A stretch of DNA of 64,000 nucleotides from an uncultured Methanosarcinales archaeon (GCA_964637115.1 CAZWVL010000008.1:10268-74267), one strand, 5' to 3'; positions 35,338 to 46,764 are shown, counted from the stretch's first letter. Translations and numbers: made by a program. Notes: generated by a model from the letters alone, not told the origin.

Positions 35338-35562
35338 GCAAACTAAAAGTTCTCATGTTCGGATGCTCATCAAACCTTTGCAAAAGGTTTGATCTAAAGC
35401 ACTCAAGCGGGATTTCCGCTGCGCTACAATCCCGCGACATGTCGGAAATGCTTTGCATTTCCGAGCATGCTCGGAAATCTTTGATTTCCGACATACCAAA
35501 AGCCGTCCCGGCCGCATGGGAGGCAAGAACATGAGCAAACTAAAAGTTCTCATGTTCGGATG
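35334..35562 (+). mobile_element. 165-bp palindromic REP/MITE-like insert between 32-bp exact direct repeats of the GT4 gene start
   Basis: ATGAGCAAACTAAAAGTTCTCATGTTCGGATG at 35334-35365 and 35531-35562; four hairpins in between. Confidence 0.75.
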
Positions 35563-36748
35563 GGAATTCCCACCATTCAAATCAGGAGGACTAGGAACAG
35601 CATGCTATGGACTGACAAAAGGACTGGCGCGAAACGGGTGTGAAGTAACATTTGTCATGCCAGTAACGCCAGAAGGAGCAAAAGCCAAGTTTGTGAAATT
35701 GGTTGGCTCTTCCAACATTGCAAGGAACGTCAAAATAAGAAAAGTCGAAAGTCCGCTGATGGCGTATATGACTTCATCATCTTATGAAGAACACATAACA
35801 ATCAGCGGCAACAAGAAAAAACACGTCTACGGAAGAGACTTGTTTGAAGAAGTGCAGCGTTATGCAGCATTGGCAAAATACATTGCAAAAGAAGAAGAGC
35901 ATGATATCATCCACGCACACGACTGGATGACCTATCAGGCAGGCATAAATGCGAAAAAAGCCAGTAAGAAGCCGTTGGTTGTGCATCTGCACGCAACAGA
36001 ATTCGACAGAACAGGAGAAAATCCAGACGACAGAATCAGCCACATAGAATGGCTTGGACTAAAAGAAGCAGACAGAATAATCACGAACAGCAACTACACA
36101 AAACAAAACATCATCAAGCATTACAAGATACCGGCAGAGAAGATAGACGTCGTGCACTGGGGAATTGATGATGTTGACGTTCCATCATTTGACACGCCTC
36201 TCAAAAAAGATAAGATAGTGCTCTTCCTGGGAAGAATAACACTCCAGAAAGGACCGGACTATTTCATAGAAGTAGCCAAGAAAGTTCTTACATACGAGCC
36301 GGATACGAAATTCGTCATTGTGGGAGACGGAGACATGCTGCCACGCATAATTAATCGCGCGGCAGAACTTGGAATAACAAACAAAATCATCTTCACAGGT
36401 GCGTTGTCAGGAGACGATGTTCATAGAGCATTCAAGACAGCAGACATCTATGTAATGCCAAGCGTCTCAGAACCATTCGGACTTGTTGCACTTGAAAGCC
36501 TGAAAAACGGCACTCCAGTCATTATAAGTAAGCAGAGCGGCGTGGCAGAAGTGCTCAAGCACGCGCTTAAAGTAGACTTCTGGGATATTGATGAAATGAC
36601 CAACAAGATTGTGGCAGTGCTCAGGCATCAAGCACTCAAAGAGGAACTGAAAGAACACGGCATGCACGAAGTGCAAAAGTTCAACCTTGACGAGCCAGCA
36701 CGAAAAGTAAGAGACACGTATCATCACGTCCGAGGTGAGCACGCATGA
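35531..36748 (+). CDS. GT4 glycosyltransferase (glycogen/starch synthase-like)
   Basis: MFGWEFPP..SGGLG, IHAHDWMT, HLHATE, FLGRITLQKGP, MPSVSEPFGLVALE. Confidence 0.9.
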   Translation: MSKLKVLMFGWEFPPFKSGGLGTACYGLTKGLARNGCEVTFVMPVTPEGAKAKFVKLVGSSNIARNVKIRKVESPLMAYMTSSSYEEHITISGNKKKHVYGRDLFEEVQRYAALAKYIAKEEEHDIIHAHDWMTYQAGINAKKASKKPLVVHLHATEFDRTGENPDDRISHIEWLGLKEADRIITNSNYTKQNIIKHYKIPAEKIDVVHWGIDDVDVPSFDTPLKKDKIVLFLGRITLQKGPDYFIEVAKKVLTYEPDTKFVIVGDGDMLPRIINRAAELGITNKIIFTGALSGDDVHRAFKTADIYVMPSVSEPFGLVALESLKNGTPVIISKQSGVAEVLKHALKVDFWDIDEMTNKIVAVLRHQALKEELKEHGMHEVQKFNLDEPARKVRDTYHHVRGEHA

Positions 36749-37962
36749 CTGACGTCTGCCTCTACTTCCAAGTACACCAGCCATTCAGACTGGCACGATA
36801 CACGCTCTTTGATATTGGAAAACACTCAAGATACTTTGACGAAGCAAAAAACAAAGAAATAATGCTCAAAGTAGCGCGAAAATGCTACCTGCCAACGAAC
36901 AGCATAATCAGACAGCTTATTGCGAAACACGACGACTTCAAAGTAACGTACAGCATAACTGGAAGCGCGCTTGAACAATTTGAAAAATACGCACCCAACG
37001 TATTGAGAAGTTTCAAAGAACTTGCAGAAACAGGAGCAGTTGAATTCCTAACAGAAACAAGCAACCATTCACTCTCCGCGCTTGCGGATAAAGATGAATT
37101 TACTTCACAAATAAAAGAACACCAGAAATTAATCAAGAATTACTTTGGACAAAAGCCCAAGATATTCAGAAATACAGAATTAGTTTACAATAATGAGATT
37201 GCCAAAACTGCAGAACAACTTGGTTTCAAAGGCATACTCGCAGAAGGATGGGACTCAATACTAGGATGGCGAAGCCCCAACTACGTCTACAAGGCAGCAG
37301 AAACGCGCAAAATGAGATTGCTGCTCAAGAACTACCGGCTTTCAGATGATGTGGCATTCAGATTCTCCAATAAACACTGGAACAGCTGGCCATTAACAGC
37401 AGAAAAGTACGCAGGATGGATAGCGCCCATACTCGGAGACAGCATCAACCTGTTCATGGACTATGAAACATTCGGAGAGCACCAATGGGAAGACACAGGA
37501 ATATTCAACTTCCTCAAACACTTGCCGGCTGCACTGAAGAAACACAACATAAGCTTCAAACATCCCAGCGAACTGCTGAAAATACGGCCAAAAGAAGAAC
37601 TCGACATCCAGCAGACAATCAGTTGGGCAGATGTAGAAAGAGATACGAGCGCATGGCTCGGCAACAAAATGCAGCAAAGCGCGCACGCACAGATTTACTC
37701 AATTCGAAAAGACGTGCTTGCAAGCGGAGACAGAGAATTACTTGCTTCGTGGAAAAAACTTACGACAAGCGACCATTTCTACTATATGTGCACCAAATGG
37801 TTCAACGATGGAGACGTGCACAAATATTTCAGCCCATACGATACCCCATATGACTGCTTCATCAATTACATGAACATATTGCAAGATATGACGCTCAGAC
37901 TCAAAAATAAACAAGGACTGTTTGAGTCCATTAAAAGATTTGTCAAAGAGGTGAAGTTATGA
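36745..37962 (+). CDS. GH57 alpha-amylase-like glycoside hydrolase
   Basis: YFQVHQP, FRNTEL nucleophile motif, LFMDYETFGEHQW, TSDHFYYM. Confidence 0.9.
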   Translation: MTDVCLYFQVHQPFRLARYTLFDIGKHSRYFDEAKNKEIMLKVARKCYLPTNSIIRQLIAKHDDFKVTYSITGSALEQFEKYAPNVLRSFKELAETGAVEFLTETSNHSLSALADKDEFTSQIKEHQKLIKNYFGQKPKIFRNTELVYNNEIAKTAEQLGFKGILAEGWDSILGWRSPNYVYKAAETRKMRLLLKNYRLSDDVAFRFSNKHWNSWPLTAEKYAGWIAPILGDSINLFMDYETFGEHQWEDTGIFNFLKHLPAALKKHNISFKHPSELLKIRPKEELDIQQTISWADVERDTSAWLGNKMQQSAHAQIYSIRKDVLASGDRELLASWKKLTTSDHFYYMCTKWFNDGDVHKYFSPYDTPYDCFINYMNILQDMTLRLKNKQGLFESIKRFVKEVKL

Positions 37963-38336
37963 AACGAACAAAACAAAGACGCGTCAAATCAAAAATCAGG
38001 AAAACAAGACCTTCCCACAAGCCAAAAACAACCGTACACGTGACCATAACACGAAAAGTTTTAGGCAAAACACCGGAAAAATACAGTTTCAACCTGCCAG
38101 ACGGCAGAAAACTGAGAAGCGTGTATGAACTGATAGACGAATTAGAGACTATGAGTGAGGAAAACTTCAGGCATTACGTGACTGAAACAGAAAACCACTT
38201 TGCCAACTGGATAGAACACGTGTTCAGCGAAAAACACCTGGCAAATGAACTGAGGCACGTAAAAAACAGGATAGACACGCAAAGAGCGATTTTGAAACAT
38301 CTTGTAAGAGAACTCATGAAAAAGGCACACGCATGA
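37959..38336 (+). CDS. DUF5752-like protein
   Basis: FNLPDGRKLRSVYEL...FRHYV...NHFANWIEHVF. Confidence 0.7.
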   Translation: MKRTKQRRVKSKIRKTRPSHKPKTTVHVTITRKVLGKTPEKYSFNLPDGRKLRSVYELIDELETMSEENFRHYVTETENHFANWIEHVFSEKHLANELRHVKNRIDTQRAILKHLVRELMKKAHA

Positions 38337-38902
38337 ACTTACGCGACGTTCCGCCAGAAAATGAATTTGTACTAATCGGCGGAAGAAAAATCAAGAATAT
38401 CGCTGAATTAGGCAGAGAACTCAGGCAGATGAGCGATGACATGTTCGCGCATCACGTCACGGAACAGAAAAACGACTTTGCCAACTGGATAGAAAAGTGC
38501 GTAAAGGATGAAACATTGGGAATATTAGCACGAACGACAAAAGACAAGGAACGCATGGCAGCAATTGTTGAAAGAAGAATCAAAGAACTAACACAGCCAA
38601 AAATCATCAGAACCGCACAGCAGACAATGCAGCAGCCAAGCATTGTCAGAACAAAAAATGTGACCATGCTTAAGTTTGCGCACGAACAAATGCCTGCCAT
38701 AACAAAACCTCAAAAGCAAATAATACACACACCGCACAAAACGGTGCTCAAACTGCAGCACGAACAGCCATTAAAAACTGAAATTTACGTTCACGAGGTT
38801 AACAAACACCACCACGGGGCAGCATTGCTAATAGCGCATTTAGTGCTCGGGATTGTCGTAGGAGTAGCAATCGCTGCCCTGGTGCTGGCGTTTAATACAT
38901 AA
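38333..38902 (+). CDS. DUF5752-like protein with C-terminal TM
   Basis: FVLIGGRKIKNIAEL...FAHHV...KNDFANWIEK; C-terminal hydrophobic helix. Confidence 0.7.
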   Translation: MNLRDVPPENEFVLIGGRKIKNIAELGRELRQMSDDMFAHHVTEQKNDFANWIEKCVKDETLGILARTTKDKERMAAIVERRIKELTQPKIIRTAQQTMQQPSIVRTKNVTMLKFAHEQMPAITKPQKQIIHTPHKTVLKLQHEQPLKTEIYVHEVNKHHHGAALLIAHLVLGIVVGVAIAALVLAFNT

Positions 38903-38938
38903 CCTTTAAATGAATAAAAACAAAGAGGAAACAAAAAG

Positions 38939-39898
38939 ATGGTGTACGACGTTATCAGCGTAGGCGGAGCAAACATAGACGTATTCATCACTACAAAAAG
39001 CAAAGATGTAGAAATAGAAAAGATACACGCACACGAAGACGTGTGCATGCCCATCGGCGCCAAAATACTGATTGATACGCTTGTTACAGATACGGGAGGC
39101 TCAGGAGTCAACACCGCAACAGCATTCGCACGGCTCGGCTTGAAAGCAGCAGTTGTCAGCAAACTTGGACAAGATATGAATGCGGACGTAGTTCTGAACA
39201 AATTAAAAAAAGAAAAAATAGATTTCCTTGGAGTGAAAGCAGCGGGACACACAGGATACTCTGTAATTCTGTCAGGACTGCACAAGAATAGAACGATTCT
39301 CACGTTCAAAGGCAACAATAACTTGATGACAACAAAAGACATTCAATGGAAAAAACTCAAGACAAAATGGTTCTATTTTGGAACGCTGCTTGGACAGAGC
39401 TGGAAGACACAATGCGCGATTGCGCAATATGCAAAAAAGAACGGCATTAAACTTTTGTTTAACCCGTCACTCTACTTGGCAGAGAAAGGAATGAAATTCC
39501 TGAAGCCAATACTTGACGCGTGCACAGTACTCATCCTGAACAAAGAAGAAGCACAGGCGCTTACCGGCATGAAGGGATATACCAAGCAAATCCTGGAAAG
39601 ACTGCAGAAACACGTCCCTATCGTAGTCATTACAGACGGACCAAGAGGAGCGCTCGCGTACAACGGAATCCAACACTATTCAATCGTTCCAAAAGACGTG
39701 CCAATTGCCGACACAACAGGAGCAGGAGACTCATTTGCAAGCGCTTTCCTGGCAGCACTGATTGATGGACAAGACATTCCGACTGCTTTAAAATGGGGAG
39801 CTGCAGAAGCAAACAGCGTTATACAGCACTACGGCGCGACTAATATTCTGCTCAACAAAAAAGAAATTGTAAAACAATCAAATAACGCGGAGGCATAA
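38939..39898 (+). CDS. PfkB/ribokinase-family carbohydrate kinase
   Basis: GGSGVNTA, NKEEA, VITDGPRG, DTTGAGDSF. Confidence 0.9.
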   Translation: MVYDVISVGGANIDVFITTKSKDVEIEKIHAHEDVCMPIGAKILIDTLVTDTGGSGVNTATAFARLGLKAAVVSKLGQDMNADVVLNKLKKEKIDFLGVKAAGHTGYSVILSGLHKNRTILTFKGNNNLMTTKDIQWKKLKTKWFYFGTLLGQSWKTQCAIAQYAKKNGIKLLFNPSLYLAEKGMKFLKPILDACTVLILNKEEAQALTGMKGYTKQILERLQKHVPIVVITDGPRGALAYNGIQHYSIVPKDVPIADTTGAGDSFASAFLAALIDGQDIPTALKWGAAEANSVIQHYGATNILLNKKEIVKQSNNAEA

Positions 39899-39899
39899 A

Positions 39900-40814
39900 A
39901 TGTTGGTAACACTCAAAAAAATCCTGAAAGAAGCAAACAAAGGCACGTACGCAGTCGGAGCATTCAACATAAACAACATGGAAATCGCGCAGGCAGCAAT
40001 TAATGCAGCTGTTGCGCAGAAATCACCAGTCATTCTGCAAACATCTGAAGGAGCAATTGCGTATGCAGGAACGGAATACCTGAAAGCACTCGCATATGCT
40101 GCAGCAAAACAAAAAGTTCCTGTTGCATTGCACTTAGACCACGGACGAGACATGGATATTATCAAGAAATGCATCAAAGCGGGCTGGACCGGGATAATGT
40201 ACGACGGCAGCCACCTGCCATTCGAAGAAAATATCAAGAATACCAAAAAAGTGGTGCAATGGGCGCACAAGGCAGGCATCGGAGTAGAAGGAGAACTCGG
40301 CACAATCGGCGGAGCAGAAGAGAAAATCATTGCACGCGAAATAGTCTACACTGATCCAGTTGCTGCTGTAGAATTTGTAAAGAAAACTGGAGTTGATGCT
40401 CTTGCTGTCGCAATCGGAACGTCTCACGGTGCATACAAGTTTGAAGGAACAGCACGTTTGGACATACATTTATTGAAAGTCATCAAGGAAAAATTGCAGA
40501 TGCCTTTAGTGCTGCATGGTGCATCCGGAGTACCGGCATGGCTGGTAACGCAAGCAGTCAGATATGGAGCAGAACTAGGCAAGCCAGAAGGAGTGCCAGA
40601 TGATCAGATACGCATTGCAGTGCAATCAGGAATCAACAAAGTCAACACTGATACTGATTTAAGATTAGCTTTTGACGCCGCAGTCAGGCAGTTCCTGAAG
40701 GAAAAACCGTCAGACTTTGATCCAAGACACATTTTAGCGCCTGCGCGCACTTTAATGCAGCAGATTATCGAACACAGAATACAATTGTTCGGGAGCAATG
40801 GAAAAGCGTTATGA
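39900..40814 (+). CDS. fba: Class II fructose-1,6-bisphosphate aldolase
   Basis: LHLDHG, VEGELG, AIGTSHGAYK, LVLHGASG, KVNTDTD. Confidence 0.95.
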   Translation: MLVTLKKILKEANKGTYAVGAFNINNMEIAQAAINAAVAQKSPVILQTSEGAIAYAGTEYLKALAYAAAKQKVPVALHLDHGRDMDIIKKCIKAGWTGIMYDGSHLPFEENIKNTKKVVQWAHKAGIGVEGELGTIGGAEEKIIAREIVYTDPVAAVEFVKKTGVDALAVAIGTSHGAYKFEGTARLDIHLLKVIKEKLQMPLVLHGASGVPAWLVTQAVRYGAELGKPEGVPDDQIRIAVQSGINKVNTDTDLRLAFDAAVRQFLKEKPSDFDPRHILAPARTLMQQIIEHRIQLFGSNGKAL

Positions 40815-40930
40815 AATGCGTAGAAAACCAATACAAAATGCACGCATTTCATAACGTGCTCGGAAATCGCTTTCAACAATCATCAAACCAAGAGGTGAAT
40901 GGTTTCGCACATGCGATTTCCGACACGTGA
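40807..40930 (+). repeat. REP-like double hairpin carrying a 39-codon bridging ORF (40811-40930)
   Basis: 15-bp stem 40807-40821/40842-40856; bulged stem 40854-40870/40913-40928. Confidence 0.7.
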
Positions 40931-41241
40931 AGCCGATTTTAGTATATATTACTGTGCCAGATGAAAAGGACGCGGAAATGATAGGCGCAGCATTGGTAAA
41001 GAAAAAACTAGCTAGCTGCGTGAACATTATTTCTAACATTCACTGCCAGTATATCTGGAAAGGAAAATTCCAGCACGATAAGGAAGCAGTAATGATGGTG
41101 AAGACTTTTGACACGAAATACAAAGCATTGGAGAAAGTCGTTAAGAAAATTCATTGTTATGAAAATCCGTGCATTGTTGCAATGCCGATAACAAAAGGAA
41201 GCAAAGAATATCTATCTTGGAGTAGGAGGGCAGTAAAATGA
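40927..41241 (+). CDS. cutA: Divalent-cation tolerance protein CutA
   Basis: LVKKKLASCVN, YIWKG, IHCYENPCIV. Confidence 0.9.
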   Translation: MKPILVYITVPDEKDAEMIGAALVKKKLASCVNIISNIHCQYIWKGKFQHDKEAVMMVKTFDTKYKALEKVVKKIHCYENPCIVAMPITKGSKEYLSWSRRAVK

Positions 41242-41753
41242 CTTTTTGGAGAACTTTAGAATATACACTAATCTGTATGCTTTTGTTTAGCGTAATACTC
41301 TCATTATCATTCATGGAAATACGCACATTTTTTATCATAGTGAGTTTGCTTGCAGGACTGGTCTTCTACTATCTTTTCAAAGAAATGCCAACAGATGAAG
41401 CAATGCAAGAAATCAGCATTGTCTACATTCCAGCATCCATCGTGGTTATCATTGAAGGCATGTTTACAAATCTGATGAAATATACTATTGAAACGGCAGC
41501 ATCATTACGACCCGATCCTCAAATTGGATCGCTTGCGACGATATTTGCACAAAGAAACATAATATTCGAGCTAATAGTACTTCTAGTCGGACTTTTCGGC
41601 CCATTCATAGCATTCAAGCTGTTAAAAGCCCAACAAATAGAATACAAAAGACTTATTTGGAATATTGCAGCCGTATTCATCGCATACTTAATCGCCCTTC
41701 TTATTGTTACCTTTGTCATCATGCCCAGATTGATAGGAGGAGCGCCATTATGA
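41238..41753 (+). CDS. Multi-TM hypothetical protein
   Basis: About five hydrophobic helices; ATGA coupling on both sides. Confidence 0.65.
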   Translation: MTFWRTLEYTLICMLLFSVILSLSFMEIRTFFIIVSLLAGLVFYYLFKEMPTDEAMQEISIVYIPASIVVIIEGMFTNLMKYTIETAASLRPDPQIGSLATIFAQRNIIFELIVLLVGLFGPFIAFKLLKAQQIEYKRLIWNIAAVFIAYLIALLIVTFVIMPRLIGGAPL

Positions 41754-42193
41754 AACAAACAGTGCACATAGGAGCAGACCACGCAGGATTTGTATTAAAA
41801 GAACACCTGAAGAAGTTCTTGCAGAAGAAAGGCTACACTGTGAAAGATTTGGGAGCACACAAACTCATCAAAGGAGACGATTATCCAGATTATGCAGAAA
41901 AAGTTGCGAAAGCCATCCAGAGAGGAGGAAAAGGAATACTTCTTTGCGGTTCAGCAGAAGGAATATGCATAGCAGCAAACAAATTCAGAAAAATCAGGGC
42001 AGTACCAGTCTGGACGCTGCAAAATGCGAAATTAAGCAGACAGGACAATGACGCGAACATATTGTGCCTGAGCGGATGGGAGCTTTCAAAGAAAAAAGCA
42101 GAACAGATTTCATTAACTTGGCTGAAAACGCCATTTTCAGGAGAAAAAAGGCACGTTCGAAGAATCAAGAAGATAGCGAGATTGGAAAGATGA
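41750..42193 (+). CDS. rpiB: Ribose-5-phosphate isomerase B
   Basis: GADHAG, DYPD, LCGSAEG, IAANK, DNDANIL. Confidence 0.93.
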   Translation: MKQTVHIGADHAGFVLKEHLKKFLQKKGYTVKDLGAHKLIKGDDYPDYAEKVAKAIQRGGKGILLCGSAEGICIAANKFRKIRAVPVWTLQNAKLSRQDNDANILCLSGWELSKKKAEQISLTWLKTPFSGEKRHVRRIKKIARLER

Positions 42194-42804
42194 CAGAGAT
42201 AATTCCAGGAATACTGGTGCACACACTGAAAGAACTCAAGCAAAAACTGCACTTATTGAGCTGGGCAAAAAAAGTGCATATTGACATAATGGACGGTAAG
42301 TTCGTTCCAAACAGGACAATATCGGCATTAACACTGAAGAAGGCAATACCTAAGATGGACATGCAAATACATTTGATGGCGTACAAACCACACAAATACG
42401 TGAACATTTTTTCAAGAATGGGAGCAAAAGAATTGATCATTCATGCAGAAGCGTCAAAAGAGACGCCAAAAGTGCTTGAATACATCCGCGAAAAAGGAAT
42501 GAAAGCAGGAATTGCATTCAACCCAGAAACAAAAATAGGACAGCACGCGCTTATTCATGCAGATTTGGCGCTCGTGATGACGGTGCATCCAGGATTCAGC
42601 GGGCAGACGTTTTTGAAAACGCCTGTACGAAAGATTGCAGAGATAAAAAATCACAATCCACTGCTTCAAGTGGGTGTTGACGGAGGAATTAATTCGCAAA
42701 CGTGCAGATTTGTCAAAGAAGCAGATTTTGCTATTGCAACACACGCTGTTATAGAAGCAGAAGAACCAAGAAAAGCGTGGCTTGAACTCAAAAAAAGATG
42801 TTAA
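42190..42804 (+). CDS. rpe: Ribulose-phosphate 3-epimerase
   Basis: HIDIMDGKFVPN, HLM, MTVHPGFSGQ, VDGGIN. Confidence 0.92.
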   Translation: MTEIIPGILVHTLKELKQKLHLLSWAKKVHIDIMDGKFVPNRTISALTLKKAIPKMDMQIHLMAYKPHKYVNIFSRMGAKELIIHAEASKETPKVLEYIREKGMKAGIAFNPETKIGQHALIHADLALVMTVHPGFSGQTFLKTPVRKIAEIKNHNPLLQVGVDGGINSQTCRFVKEADFAIATHAVIEAEEPRKAWLELKKRC

Positions 42805-42805
42805 A

Positions 42806-43543
42806 ATGGACTTACAGAAAAAAGCAAACATAATCCGGCAAGACATTATCAGAATGATAAGCCGGGCAGGCAAAGGAAACACGGCGCCAAACTTGGGCAT
42901 GGCAGACATATTTGCCACACTATATTTCGGAGCGTTAAAACACAATCCAAGACAACCAAAATGGGAAGAGCGCGACAGACTATTTGCAGCAGGCCAATAT
43001 TCACCAGCCTGGAGAACAACATTAGCGCATTCTGGATATTTCGCAAAAAAAGACTTGTTTCAAGGGAGCCAGCACACCATGCCAGGAAGCCTTGGCTTGG
43101 CTGTCGGCAGCGCGCTCGCAGCCCAAATAGACGGCAAAGAACACCAAACTTACTGCATCTTAAGCGACCACGACCTGCACAAAGGAGAAGCGTGGGAAGC
43201 ACTATTATTAGCGGGAAAACATAAACTTGCAAATCTAACTCTCATAATCGACAGAAGCAATATGCAATCAGACGGATATATTGAGAACATAATGCCTCTT
43301 GAGCCATTGCGCAGCAAACTTGAATCATTCAACTGGAACGCCATTGAAGTAGACGGCCACAACCACCAGCATATCAAAGAGGCAATAACAGAAGCCAAAA
43401 ATTCGCATAAACCAACAGTAATTCTTGCCCACATCATACCCGGAAAAGGAGTTAATTTCATTGAGAACAAAACTGAATGGTACGAAAAACCTCCAACAAA
43501 AGAAGAAGAAAGCGCAGCATTAACAGAGTTACAAAAACAATGA
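42806..43543 (+). CDS. Transketolase N-terminal subunit homolog with degenerate active site
   Basis: Transketolase scaffold present (LGMADIF, ERDR, WEA, VDGHN, PGKGV) but the catalytic His positions and GDG motif are altered. Confidence 0.85.
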   Translation: MDLQKKANIIRQDIIRMISRAGKGNTAPNLGMADIFATLYFGALKHNPRQPKWEERDRLFAAGQYSPAWRTTLAHSGYFAKKDLFQGSQHTMPGSLGLAVGSALAAQIDGKEHQTYCILSDHDLHKGEAWEALLLAGKHKLANLTLIIDRSNMQSDGYIENIMPLEPLRSKLESFNWNAIEVDGHNHQHIKEAITEAKNSHKPTVILAHIIPGKGVNFIENKTEWYEKPPTKEEESAALTELQKQ

Positions 43544-44646
43544 AAACAAGCAAAGACGGATACGCAGAAGCACTTACAGAGCTCGCCAAACAAAAAGAAG
43601 ACATGGTTGTGCTAAGCGCAGATACTGCTCTGAAAACAGGCATCAAGCATTTTGCCGACAAGCACCCAAACAGATTCATCCAGTGCGGCAAGGCATCACA
43701 AAATATGATGAGCGTAGCAGCAGGAATGGCAATGGAAGGCAAAATAGCGTTTGCAACAGGCTGCATAACAATGGGAAAAAACTGGGACCAGATACGAATG
43801 ATAGCACACGAAAGATTAAACGTCAAAATTGTAGATGCAGACGAAACACTCGAGGATACTGCATTAGCACGCGCACTGCCAGCCATGACCATAATTATTC
43901 CAGCAGACTACAATGAAGCAAGGAAAGCAACCCTGGCAGCAGGAACAATGAAAGGTCCTGTGTATCTAAAGCTGACAAATAATTCATCCGTAACCACTGA
44001 AAAAACGCCATTCACAATAGGCAGAGTAGAAATACTGCGCGCAGGAAAAGACTGCACCATACTGGCGTGCGGTTCAGCAGTAAAGGAAGCACTGCTCGCT
44101 GCTGAAAGACTTGCACAACAAGAAATAGAATGCACCGTGCTTAACTGCCACACAATACAGCCGATAGACAAACACGCAATAATCAGCAGTGCACGCATAA
44201 CTGGATGCATTGTTGCAGCAGCAGAAAGCAATGCACTTGGAAGCATAACAGCAGAAATAATAAGCCAGAACTCGCCAGTGCCCTTTCGCACAGCACCAGC
44301 AGAGCAATCAAACATTGCCAGAGCAGCCAAAGAAGCAGTACTGCTAAAATGCGAAGGTGTTTGCCCAGAAATCCCTGAAGAACACGGCAAACTACTCGTT
44401 TCCCAAATTCATCCAGAATCATACTTCAAACTGCACGGCGGCGGAACAATCAAAAGCATACCAGGATTAAAGAAAGCACTATTGGAAATGAACAACGAAA
44501 CATTCTCGCACCACTGCAACGAACACAAAAACGACTTCAGCATATGGGTAGAAGACGTTTTCAAAGAACCAACACTCGCACACCAGATTGAAAAAACAAA
44601 AACACGCGTTGGAATGGCACTAACCATCACAAGGTGGCTGATGTGA
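43540..44646 (+). CDS. Transketolase C-terminal subunit homolog (degenerate) fused to a DUF5752-like domain
   Basis: HPNRF, QNMMSVAAG, GPVYLKL, NCHTIQPID; C-terminal FKLHGGGTIKSI...FSHHC...KNDFSIWVEDVF. Confidence 0.85.
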   Translation: MKTSKDGYAEALTELAKQKEDMVVLSADTALKTGIKHFADKHPNRFIQCGKASQNMMSVAAGMAMEGKIAFATGCITMGKNWDQIRMIAHERLNVKIVDADETLEDTALARALPAMTIIIPADYNEARKATLAAGTMKGPVYLKLTNNSSVTTEKTPFTIGRVEILRAGKDCTILACGSAVKEALLAAERLAQQEIECTVLNCHTIQPIDKHAIISSARITGCIVAAAESNALGSITAEIISQNSPVPFRTAPAEQSNIARAAKEAVLLKCEGVCPEIPEEHGKLLVSQIHPESYFKLHGGGTIKSIPGLKKALLEMNNETFSHHCNEHKNDFSIWVEDVFKEPTLAHQIEKTKTRVGMALTITRWLM

Positions 44647-45326
44647 AAATAGCCGTCTATGGAAAAACACCGGAAAGCAAAATAGAACTGCTAAAAGCAG
44701 CCAAGAAAGCAGGATTTACTTATGATGAGAAAAAGCCAGACTTAGTCATTTCTTACGGCGGAGACGGAACTTTCCTCTGGGCGGAAAGAAAATACCCAGG
44801 AATTGCAAAAGCGCTTTTCAGATACAGCAAAGTCTGCAAAAAATGCCACAACCTGCCAATCGATCATGCACTTTCGCTCATCAAAAAGAAAAAATACAAG
44901 ATAATAACTCACAACAAACTCGAAGCAAGAGTTGACAAGACAACATTGCTGGCGACAAACGACATTGTTGTCAGAAATGCCATGCCAACCCACGCAATAC
45001 GATTCAAACTTGAAATAAACGGCAAAAAAATCAATGAAGAGTTTATCGGCGACGGCATTGTAGCAGCCACGCCATTCGGCTCAACAGCCTATTTCCACAG
45101 CATTACCAAAAAAACGTTTGAAAAAGGCATTGGAATTGCTTTCAACAATACCACAGTGCTGCAAAAACCGCTTTTATTACCGGAAAAAGCACGCGTACTG
45201 CTGACATTAACACGCGGAGAAGCATTCGTAGTAGGAGACAATGAGCCAAGAATGATCGTATTAACACCTGGAAAAAGCGTTACGATAAAAACAAGCCAAC
45301 AAAAAGCAAAACTGTTATCTTTCTAA
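44634..45326 (+). CDS. nadK: NAD kinase
   Basis: GGDGT, ND, GDGIVAATPFGSTAY. Confidence 0.88.
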   Translation: MADVKIAVYGKTPESKIELLKAAKKAGFTYDEKKPDLVISYGGDGTFLWAERKYPGIAKALFRYSKVCKKCHNLPIDHALSLIKKKKYKIITHNKLEARVDKTTLLATNDIVVRNAMPTHAIRFKLEINGKKINEEFIGDGIVAATPFGSTAYFHSITKKTFEKGIGIAFNNTTVLQKPLLLPEKARVLLTLTRGEAFVVGDNEPRMIVLTPGKSVTIKTSQQKAKLLSF

Positions 45327-45943
45327 ATAGACTTAATTGCAGGCGGCGCGACCATCTTGGCGCCCTTAGCAGGCGGATTAAAGTAGTTCGCCTCAGGAAT
45401 CTGGCCAACAAGCACGACAGGGCCAGGAGAGACGTCCCAGTCGTCAGCCGGCTCCAAAGTCACTTCAACAAAATCATACGGGTCAAGATAATTGTCAACA
45501 TGATAATCAAGCTGGCCAACACCGCCAAAGCCCGTCACGAACGTGCCAAGCGACAAACGATAGCCAGAATCAACGTCAACAAGCCACACTTCAAATTGCG
45601 AATCAGTCTGGTCTGAAGCAGGAATGTCTTTTGTTTTTACCTGCACTTGGGCGCGCGGGTAACCATACCAAGTAACACTCTTGATTTTTGCAGAACCACG
45701 GGCATACATAGGAGCATAACCTCCTCTGCCCACACCCTTGTAGTCTTCAACACCAGGCGGGCCAAGATAGGCAACAGTATCAATCGTTTGGAAATTCACT
45801 CTCGGATCATAATGAGTAACGCGCTGCACACCACCAGTACCATACTTGCGAGGACTGGTAAGAGGAGATTTATACGTATGCAATGCCACGACCGACAAGC
45901 TCAAAATTGCAAGCAATGCCAGGACAATCAGTATTTTCCTCAT
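45323..45943 (-). CDS. Secreted protein with RskA C-terminal-like domain
   Basis: Signal peptide; FEVWLVD...LSLGTF...VEVTLEP...SPGPVVLVG. Confidence 0.65.
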   Translation of the reverse strand: MRKILIVLALLAILSLSVVALHTYKSPLTSPRKYGTGGVQRVTHYDPRVNFQTIDTVAYLGPPGVEDYKGVGRGGYAPMYARGSAKIKSVTWYGYPRAQVQVKTKDIPASDQTDSQFEVWLVDVDSGYRLSLGTFVTGFGGVGQLDYHVDNYLDPYDFVEVTLEPADDWDVSPGPVVLVGQIPEANYFNPPAKGAKMVAPPAIKSI

Positions 45944-46764
45944 CTTAACCTCGGATAATAATCAGGCGGTGTTCTTATCTCAGTGCGCGCCGGGTTGATA
46001 ACTCCTGACAATACAATCGTATGAGGACTTGGATCCATACTTGGGAACGGCTCCCTTGTAATCCAAACCTCATCAAACATATGCGCCAAGCGGGGAATTT
46101 GAGTAACCATCTGCAATGTGGGAGGCAGGGTGCTTTTCAAAACGCCAAGGTTCAATGCGTATTCAGTTTCATAATCAAACAACCAAGCCATGTAGATTTC
46201 GTTTTCATCCAATGGCTCAAGATAAAGAGCCTGAATGAAAATCTGGGTTCGCGGATGCGGCTTATTCAGACCAGCACCATACTCATTTCCAGTGCTGAAC
46301 ACTCTTGCCGTGCCTTTACCCATAGTTGGCTCAGTCCCGATAATCTGCTCCACAGGACTGTAAGGAAGCAATTCAACGCTTCTATCCAAGCGCGGATAGC
46401 CACGCACTTTAGGATCCCAGTTGCTGATGTGAGCAGGGTCACGACCCTGGTTTGAAAGCGAGTTGGAATCAAAGTTGAAAACTGATGAGAATGCGCTCTT
46501 GCTGCCTGTCTGCGTCAGACGATCAGTCGGACCCTTGGAACCGAAGTTTTGAAATGGTTTAACGTAGCCAGTGCCAAAGTAACGGTCACGCGTATAAGGA
46601 TCATAAATTCTTCTGTCTCTGGCAATCTGGCCAGTGTAACTGTCAATATTGTTATCGTAGACTTGATAGTTGTGAATAGCGAGAACTGAGCCGACCAATA
46701 AGAGCGCTACAAGAATAGCACTGGCAAATCTGTTCACAATATACACCTCTTTCAGCTCAATCAT
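45940..46764 (-). CDS. Secreted protein with RskA C-terminal-like domain (paralog)
   Basis: Signal peptide; YMAWLFD...LNLGVL...VWITREP...SPHTIVLSG. Confidence 0.6.
   Translation of the reverse strand: MIELKEVYIVNRFASAILVALLLVGSVLAIHNYQVYDNNIDSYTGQIARDRRIYDPYTRDRYFGTGYVKPFQNFGSKGPTDRLTQTGSKSAFSSVFNFDSNSLSNQGRDPAHISNWDPKVRGYPRLDRSVELLPYSPVEQIIGTEPTMGKGTARVFSTGNEYGAGLNKPHPRTQIFIQALYLEPLDENEIYMAWLFDYETEYALNLGVLKSTLPPTLQMVTQIPRLAHMFDEVWITREPFPSMDPSPHTIVLSGVINPARTEIRTPPDYYPRLR

Follow-up and report, generated by a model that had tools for sequence, protein, structure and literature searches.

Introduction

Pseudoenzymes are well known among eukaryotic kinases and phosphatases and, to our knowledge, are rarely documented in prokaryotic central metabolism. 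For transketolase (TK), mammalian TKTL1 is a paralog that exists alongside an active TK. TKTL1 is a full-length eukaryotic protein in which a PP-domain deletion removes conserved His residues (in the region of human His77/His110); it keeps the cofactor-activating Glu and the Pyr-domain loop, carries no added domain, and is thought to have lost normal thiamine diphosphate (ThDP)-dependent activity. Among split TKs, all ten studied in PMC13663882 retain a His at the H100 position of the E. coli enzyme (EcoTK), and the cross-coupling-specific subgroup of that study retains a His at the H473 position (both numbered as in that source). No report of a dead TK in archaea or bacteria was found in the literature searched. 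Here, a split TK-like gene pair (positions 42806-44646) is described from a stretch of 64,000 nucleotides of an uncultured Methanosarcinales archaeon (GCA_964637115.1, CAZWVL010000008.1:10268-74267), referred to below as the window. The pair is read as a non-catalytic, TK-derived hetero-oligomer (a pseudoenzyme) that is under purifying selection and has a structural or regulatory job, a reading to which a probability of about 0.6 is given. The genome carrying the window (G000; 1.27 Mb in 27 contigs, 98% complete) is labeled Woesearchaeota-type DPANN solely on the source names of homologs and Atlas taxa.

Fold and active site of the TK-like pair

The N subunit (42806-43543, plus strand, 245 aa) consists of a PP domain matching Pfam Transketolase_N, and the C subunit (43540-44646, plus strand, 368 aa in total) matches Transket_pyr and Transketolase_C, with its Pyr (residues 1-150) and TK_C (residues 151-270) domains encoded at 43540-44349. 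The closest solved proteins are both chains of the split TK of Carboxydothermus hydrogenoformans (E values of 1e-46 and 1e-40 with phmmer). The AlphaFold 2 (AF2) model of the C subunit (pLDDT 89, pTM 0.87) superimposes on 6yaj with a target-normalized TM score of 0.86 and a root-mean-square deviation (rmsd) of 1.8 Å in Foldseek. By Pfam, phmmer and the C-subunit model, the pair has the PP, Pyr and TK_C domains of a split TK, and the TK fold is, as modeled, kept.

Residue states were read from phmmer alignments against the split TK 6yak/6yaj, from alignments with canonical split TKs and the full-length TK of the same genome, and from a motif table covering 34 loci. In the N subunit, GSGH has become GKGN, SNGH has become AG-Q, the LQGHP...GPLGQG loop (about 20-28 residues) is gone, SDGEH reads SDHDL, DRNNIQIDG reads DRSNMQSDG, and EWHG reads EWYE. 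In the C subunit, GVAEQN is replaced by GKASQN, so that a Ser stands in place of the cofactor-activating Glu; close relatives have A, K or a gap at this position, or lack the whole segment. The HAGISVGPDGATHQ loop (HAGxxxGxDGxTHQ) is deleted, and K and N occupy the positions aligned with two substrate-phosphate Arg residues. The equivalents of E. coli His26, His66, His100, His261 and His473 are consequently N, Q, deleted, Y and deleted, where His26, His66 and His261 are the numbers that we take to belong to the aligned positions. The ThDP/Mg2+ motif, G/S-D-G...N, reads SDH...S in this genome. Its second Gly is lost throughout the degenerate clade, with bulky residues instead, and its Asn is missing here and in the closest relatives. 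Throughout alignment A3, the degenerate clade included, the metal-binding Asp never varies.

An earlier sequence-only reading of this DNA had listed most of these losses on what it took to be a retained TK scaffold. The scaffold is borne out by the domain, phmmer and model matches, and the loss of His26, His66, His261 and the LQGHP loop with His100, the GKASQ replacement of the activating-Glu motif and the missing GEDGxTHQ-type loop are all found in the alignments. Its claim that SDHD marks loss of the ThDP motif GDG holds in part: the second Gly, and also the Asn, are lost and the Asp is retained, and the Ser in first position does not count as a loss, as canonical split TKs of the lineage read SDG. 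Since the pair is without four His residues, the activating Glu, the second Gly and the Asn of the ThDP motif, and two loops, TK chemistry has very likely been lost. Against the NCBIfam equivalog NF004559, whose cut-off is 488 bits, the two subunits reach 175 and 160 bits.

A full-length TK in the same genome

A canonical full-length TK of approximately 620 aa is encoded elsewhere in the genome (contig C3:142371-144170, minus strand; locus L001, 349-2304). Its motifs (GSGH, SKGH, LEGHP, GSLGQG, GDG, GWHG, AEQ and GEDGPSQ) are all present and it scores 850 bits against NF004559, making it an active-looking enzyme. A run of unknown bases near the 3' end of this gene (X in translation) leaves its C-terminus unread. 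When used as a query, it detects a full-length TK in 12 of the 14 sampled genomes of genus g1, to which this genome belongs, and in G036, G025 and G026. G009 has only a contig-end fragment of one. In G001 and G010, both of the genus, the degenerate pair is the only TK-like match, and unless an assembly gap explains this, these organisms have that pair alone. Other genera of the family have full-length TK only. In each of the nine genomes that carry an intact tail-bearing pair (completeness 76-100%), that pair is the only TK found.

A graded series among relatives

The relatives of the pair form a graded series, running from intact enzymes that carry the C-terminal tail, through forms with substituted His residues and forms with deleted loops, to an eroded Pyr domain. 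All motifs are intact in both subunits, with the tail, in G015, G019, G022, G028, G029, G030, G031, G035 and G047; for G030, the tail was seen in the six-frame search described below. G036 keeps the loops, and its His positions read D, Q and Q; it is grouped with the degenerate pairs, which are found in genus g1, G025 and G026. In G009, most of the Pyr domain is lost. Metagenomic tail-bearing homologs show a similar spread: P0038 has AEQ together with a complete HAG...THQ loop; most of that loop is kept in P0021, P0030, P0033 and P0035; and the rest are without it, some also lacking approximately 30 more residues that include the Glu segment. The DUF5752 fusion occurs on intact enzymes and probably predates catalytic loss.

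In the C-subunit tree, all degenerate sequences fall on one side of a single branch (support 99/93). The N subunit is always co-retained with the C subunit. Statistics that treat the co-occurrence of degeneration and full-length TK as independent observations were discarded as invalid, given this single-branch split.

Conservation and selection

In a six-frame search of 60 related genomes, a C subunit with the tail and without internal stops was found in every one of the 14 genomes sampled from the genus, and also in several further genera. The gene order Rpe-N-C-NAD kinase (NADK) likewise holds throughout the genus. At least 20 orthologous loci, where contigs allow reading, showed neither stops nor frameshifts. 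With the GY codon model, omega stays within 0.05-0.09 across the pair, at 0.050 for Pyr, 0.065 for TK_C, 0.082 for the tail and 0.068 for the N subunit, against 0.071 for Rpe and 0.061 for NADK; as synonymous sites are saturated for most pairs (tree lengths of 8-21 per codon), the absolute values are unreliable and are meaningful only relative to Rpe and NADK. For the least diverged pairs, NG86 dN/dS of the C subunit is 0.08 (G005/G014), 0.22 and 0.19-0.30, compared with 0.15-0.36 for the N subunit, 0.15-0.31 for Rpe and 0.11-0.16 for NADK. Mean pairwise identity within the genus is 0.67 for the tail, 0.66 for TK_C and 0.59 for both Pyr and the N subunit, against 0.70 for Rpe and 0.74 for NADK. 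Relative to G000, and in the same genomes, full-length TK is 73-91% identical and the degenerate C subunit 51-79%. The pair thus evolves faster than its neighbors, most so in the former cofactor-binding parts, yet every part is constrained.

The G010 sequence (locus L009) is unpublished; it was included in the codon-model runs and the motif table and excluded from the identity statistics, the tree and the dN/dS ranges quoted. G023, also unpublished, enters solely as one of the genomes that have an ordinary split TK, and no conclusion depends on either genome.

The proposal of the sequence-only reading, that this is a selected pseudoenzyme and not a pseudogene, is supported by the intact orthologous loci, by dN/dS values of 0.08-0.39 overall, well below 1 and close to those of the flanking Rpe and NADK, and by the full-length TK elsewhere in the genome. 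The pair combines lost catalytic residues, a kept fold, purifying selection and an active-looking paralog, the four features of a working definition of a pseudoenzyme. A pseudogene is rejected on the intact reading frames and on dN/dS far below 1.

The C-terminal DUF5752 module

The C subunit continues past TK_C into a Cys/His-containing linker (44350-44409), which starts CEGVCPEIPEEHG and is conserved within the tail-bearing clade despite low model confidence, and then into a C-terminal module of one approximately 78-aa repeat that runs to the stop codon (44410-44646). This tail, the last ~80 residues, is the best-conserved part of the protein across the clade, with F26, L40, L44, M47, H55, N61, D62, F63, W66 and L76 invariant. 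All 36 clade tails match PF19027 below its curated gathering cut-off (best E value 3e-6), and the tail of this genome scores 16.4 bits (cut-off 23; E value 0.006). The PF19027 model spans two repeats (208 positions), and the tail has one. A search with a tail profile retrieved 4518 representative proteins (50% identity level) at E ≤ 1e-3; DUF5752 was present in 52 of 62 proteins drawn from these matches, and the Atlas neighbors of the tail are DUF5752 clusters.

The AF2 model of the tail (pLDDT 88) is predicted to be a small beta-hairpin with helices. In a VIA-align comparison, it is closest to 4cso, the OrfY protein of Thermoproteus tenax, with Z 9.3 and rmsd 2.1 Å over 83 residues at 20% identity. 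Foldseek with the tail alone gave nothing at E ≤ 0.001, its best hit being 4cso (E value 0.08, probability 0.99), and a profile search of Protein Data Bank (PDB) sequences also retrieves 4cso (E value 3e-4), with a common NDF..W motif. By profile homology and by a fold shared with a solved member, the tail belongs to the DUF5752/OrfY family, as had been suspected from the sequence. Other structural matches (the ViaA N-domain, Z 6.1; helical bundles, Z < 5) were too weak to use. No paper mentioning DUF5752 or OrfY of T. tenax was found in the literature searched, and PMC3634074 and PMC11046441 contain nothing on OrfY.

The module is promiscuous and widespread. The DUF5752 proteins among the tail-profile matches include free forms of ~100 aa whose ends are often rich in Lys, proteins with the repeat in tandem, and fusions to KaiC-like, ParA-like (ParA/MinD-like) and FlaC-like proteins. 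Many free copies have Lys-rich, histone-tail-like C-termini, and the module is also seen at the end of very long proteins, for example P0261 (1970 aa), P0279 (1347 aa) and P0250 (804 aa).

Positions that are conserved within the degenerate clade yet unlike canonical split TKs cluster in TK_C, among them C172, E195, E197, C198, T199, K211, H212 and C223. In degenerate members, C172, C198 and C223 are fully conserved, and K211 and H212 are conserved in at least 94%. Most of them are already present in the majority of tail-bearing proteins whose catalytic loop is retained, and thus they track the tail, not catalytic loss. They may form a surface for docking, or they may contribute to a metal site along with the CExxC...EEHG linker and the HHC of the tail.

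Operon and neighboring genes

The pair lies in a tightly packed plus-strand glycogen/pentose-phosphate operon (35531-45326). At the head are a glycogen-synthase-like GT4/GT5 glycosyltransferase (35531-36748) and a GH57 enzyme (36745-37962). These are followed by a free DUF5752 protein of 125 aa with a Lys/Arg-rich N-terminus (37959-38336) and a DUF5752 protein of 189 aa with a C-terminal hydrophobic helix (38333-38902), both found by module profile match. Next come a PfkB-family sugar kinase (38939-39898), a class II fructose-bisphosphate aldolase (39900-40814), CutA (40927-41241), a membrane open reading frame (ORF; 41238-41753), RpiB (41750-42193) and Rpe (42187-42804), the last two with strong full-length family matches and Rpe directly upstream of the pair. 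NADK (44634-45326) ends the series. The GH57 protein, both small DUF5752 proteins and the membrane ORF matched no NCBIfam model.

The junctions around the pair confirm two full, translationally coupled ORFs. The Rpe stop codon (TAA, 42802-42804) is separated by a single base from the N-subunit ATG at 42806, the N- and C-subunit genes overlap by ATGA at 43540-43543, and the C-subunit stop codon (TGA, 44644-44646) is overlapped by a GTG start of NADK at 44634 or 44643. The ORF coordinates 42806-43543 and 43540-44646 are taken as right because homologs begin at the same Met residues. With GTG 44643 as its start, NADK would overlap the C-subunit stop by GTGA, and it is near this position that alignments with homologs begin.

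A whole-genome profile search finds exactly three DUF5752 modules, all in this operon and each in a different architecture: one free with a strongly basic N-terminus, one in a protein that has a hydrophobic helix at its C-terminus, and one fused to the TK-like C subunit. The hydrophobic helix of the 189-aa protein is read as a putative membrane tail anchor. In another genus (L040), the whole operon is conserved, from GH57 to NADK, including the DUF5752 trio and two RskA_C-like genes. P0038, an intact tail-bearing TK of a more distant lineage, has a different context, adjoining a TrmB-type regulator and without the other two modules.

Downstream of the operon and convergent to it, the window has two tandem paralogs with weak RskA_C (anti-sigma-K C-terminal) matches (45323-46764, minus strand), and the pair of genes in L040 stands at the same place. 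A TrmB-family regulator is found directly upstream of the TK-like or intact tail-bearing pair in two other lineages (L038, 8168-8905; L040, 8448-9188), and such a gene is absent immediately upstream of the TK-like pair in the window.

A possible route to a non-catalytic role

The job that remains would be structural or regulatory, with a scaffold or adaptor acting through DUF5752 pairing favored, and a ligand sensor as the main rival. In the proposed scenario, the ancestral active split TK of the lineage would already have borne the C-terminal DUF5752 module and a second function. In one clade with a full-length TK, the split pair would then have become catalytically redundant. Stepwise, it could have lost its catalytic His and Glu residues, some of the ThDP/Mg motif and two active-site loops, while the second role would have preserved the N subunit, the overall fold and the place in the operon, together with the TK_C domain and the tail. 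An alpha2beta2 body would display two DUF5752 modules, which might pair with, or share a ligand with, the operon's two other DUF5752 proteins, one of them putatively membrane tail-anchored, and so tie the glycogen/pentose-phosphate enzyme set to a place or a signal. Pairing of single repeats is plausible, since OrfY itself consists of two such repeats. The specific suggestion that DUF5752 is a pairing or ligand-sensing module, serving metabolon assembly or localization through the tail-anchored partner and outliving TK chemistry after takeover by the full-length TK, is put forward tentatively, as something that may well prove otherwise. The idea of a glycogen-particle adaptor, which the sequence-only reading had also raised, would draw on the operon context (GT4/GT5 and GH57 upstream) and on the tie of DUF5752/OrfY to sugar-metabolism operons.

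Several observations weigh against the pseudoenzyme and its proposed role. That the pair is dead is judged from its sequence. The metal-site Asp is invariant and the Asn is kept in several clade members, and therefore some diphosphate ligand may still bind. The association of degeneration with a full-length TK amounts to approximately one event, because the degenerate pairs lie on one side of one branch, and no full-length TK match was found in G001 and G010 with either a protein query or PF00456. The saturation of synonymous sites noted above bears on the absolute strength of selection. Finally, DUF5752 is uncharacterized, and the N-D-F..W motif conserved in it may serve as a helix cap with a structural role.

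Alternative explanations

Instead of a scaffold, the pair could be a ligand-binding regulator, in which the PP domain binds ThDP or another diphosphate without turnover, or the tail binds a sugar or alpha-glucan, with control of the operon enzymes or NADK as the outcome. The invariant Asp with the Asn of many members, the constant co-retention of the N subunit, the depositor label of OrfY as a 'transcription factor', the basic tail of the free DUF5752 protein and the TrmB-type sugar regulators that adjoin the pair in relatives are all consistent with such a role. However, bulky residues replace the second Gly of the ThDP motif across the clade, neither the Glu nor the pyrimidine-side loop is left, and ~30 residues around them are deleted as well in some genomes. 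Overall, this regulator is considered unlikely. The variant proposed by the sequence-only reading, a sugar-phosphate sensor working through the ancestral site, appears weakened, as this genome has K and N at the positions aligned with the substrate-phosphate Arg residues, a loss that also counts against the wider explanation.

A neofunctionalized, ThDP-independent enzyme might be built on the clade-specific Cys, His and Lys residues of TK_C and the Cys/His linker, possibly with a metal, and the conservation of C172, C198, C223, K211 and H212, of CExxC...EEHG in the linker and of HHC in the tail points that way. However, most tail-bearing proteins with a retained catalytic loop already have these residues, which so go with the tail; several are probably buried core positions, and no known catalytic motif was recognized in the Pfam and NCBIfam scans, so that a new enzyme is considered very improbable. 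The lowest probability of all is given to a decaying pseudogene pair, or a functional tail carried by a drifting TK part, although the N subunit and Pyr evolve fastest, with mean pairwise identities of 0.56-0.59 against 0.64-0.67 for TK_C and the tail, 0.70 for Rpe and 0.74 for NADK, Pyr-domain deletions are progressive and reach a strongly reduced form in G009, and the pair diverges at about double the rate of the full-length TK from the same genomes. Against decay, no ortholog has a stop or frameshift where the contig allows reading, each part, including N and Pyr, has dN/dS far below 1, the N subunit is kept and coupled in all cases, and the C-subunit model is confident throughout. A pseudoenzyme retained for a structural or regulatory job remains the preferred explanation.

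If the tentative suggestion on DUF5752 made above is correct, the lineage would provide a stepwise natural record of an enzyme becoming a scaffold in reduced-genome archaea. The graded series opens the question of which portions of a ThDP enzyme are important to a role without catalysis, and the three DUF5752 architectures in one operon suggest testable partners for a widespread uncharacterized module. Metabolic reconstruction of DPANN genomes calls for caution, as pipelines annotate such genes as transketolase or DXS.

Comparison with known systems

The module has its solved counterpart in OrfY of T. tenax, which is a free protein of two tandem repeats, whereas here a single repeat is fused to TK_C. 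OrfY is deposited as 'OrfY protein, transcription factor', a depositor label that is unverified. It is said to have been linked to the treT gene by Kouril and co-workers in 2008.

TKTL1 and the archaeal pair are of independent, convergent origin. The deletion in the N subunit overlaps the region of the loop equivalent to that of human His110, and the His77 equivalent is substituted. Unlike TKTL1, the archaeal enzyme is split, both of its halves are hit, and DUF5752 is fused to it.

The split TK of C. hydrogenoformans (6yak/6yaj) and the canonical split TKs of DPANN and the candidate phyla radiation (CPR) have the same two-gene architecture, the same domains (PP; Pyr + TK_C) and the same fold as the TK-like pair, at 33-50% sequence identity, and the canonical split TKs share its neighborhood with Rpe and RpiB. 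In contrast to them, the pair has lost all catalytic His residues and the activating Glu, along with some of the ThDP/Mg motif and two loops, and carries the DUF5752 module in addition. The His residues at the H100 and H473 positions, kept in the split TKs of PMC13663882 as stated above for each, are both lost in this pair.

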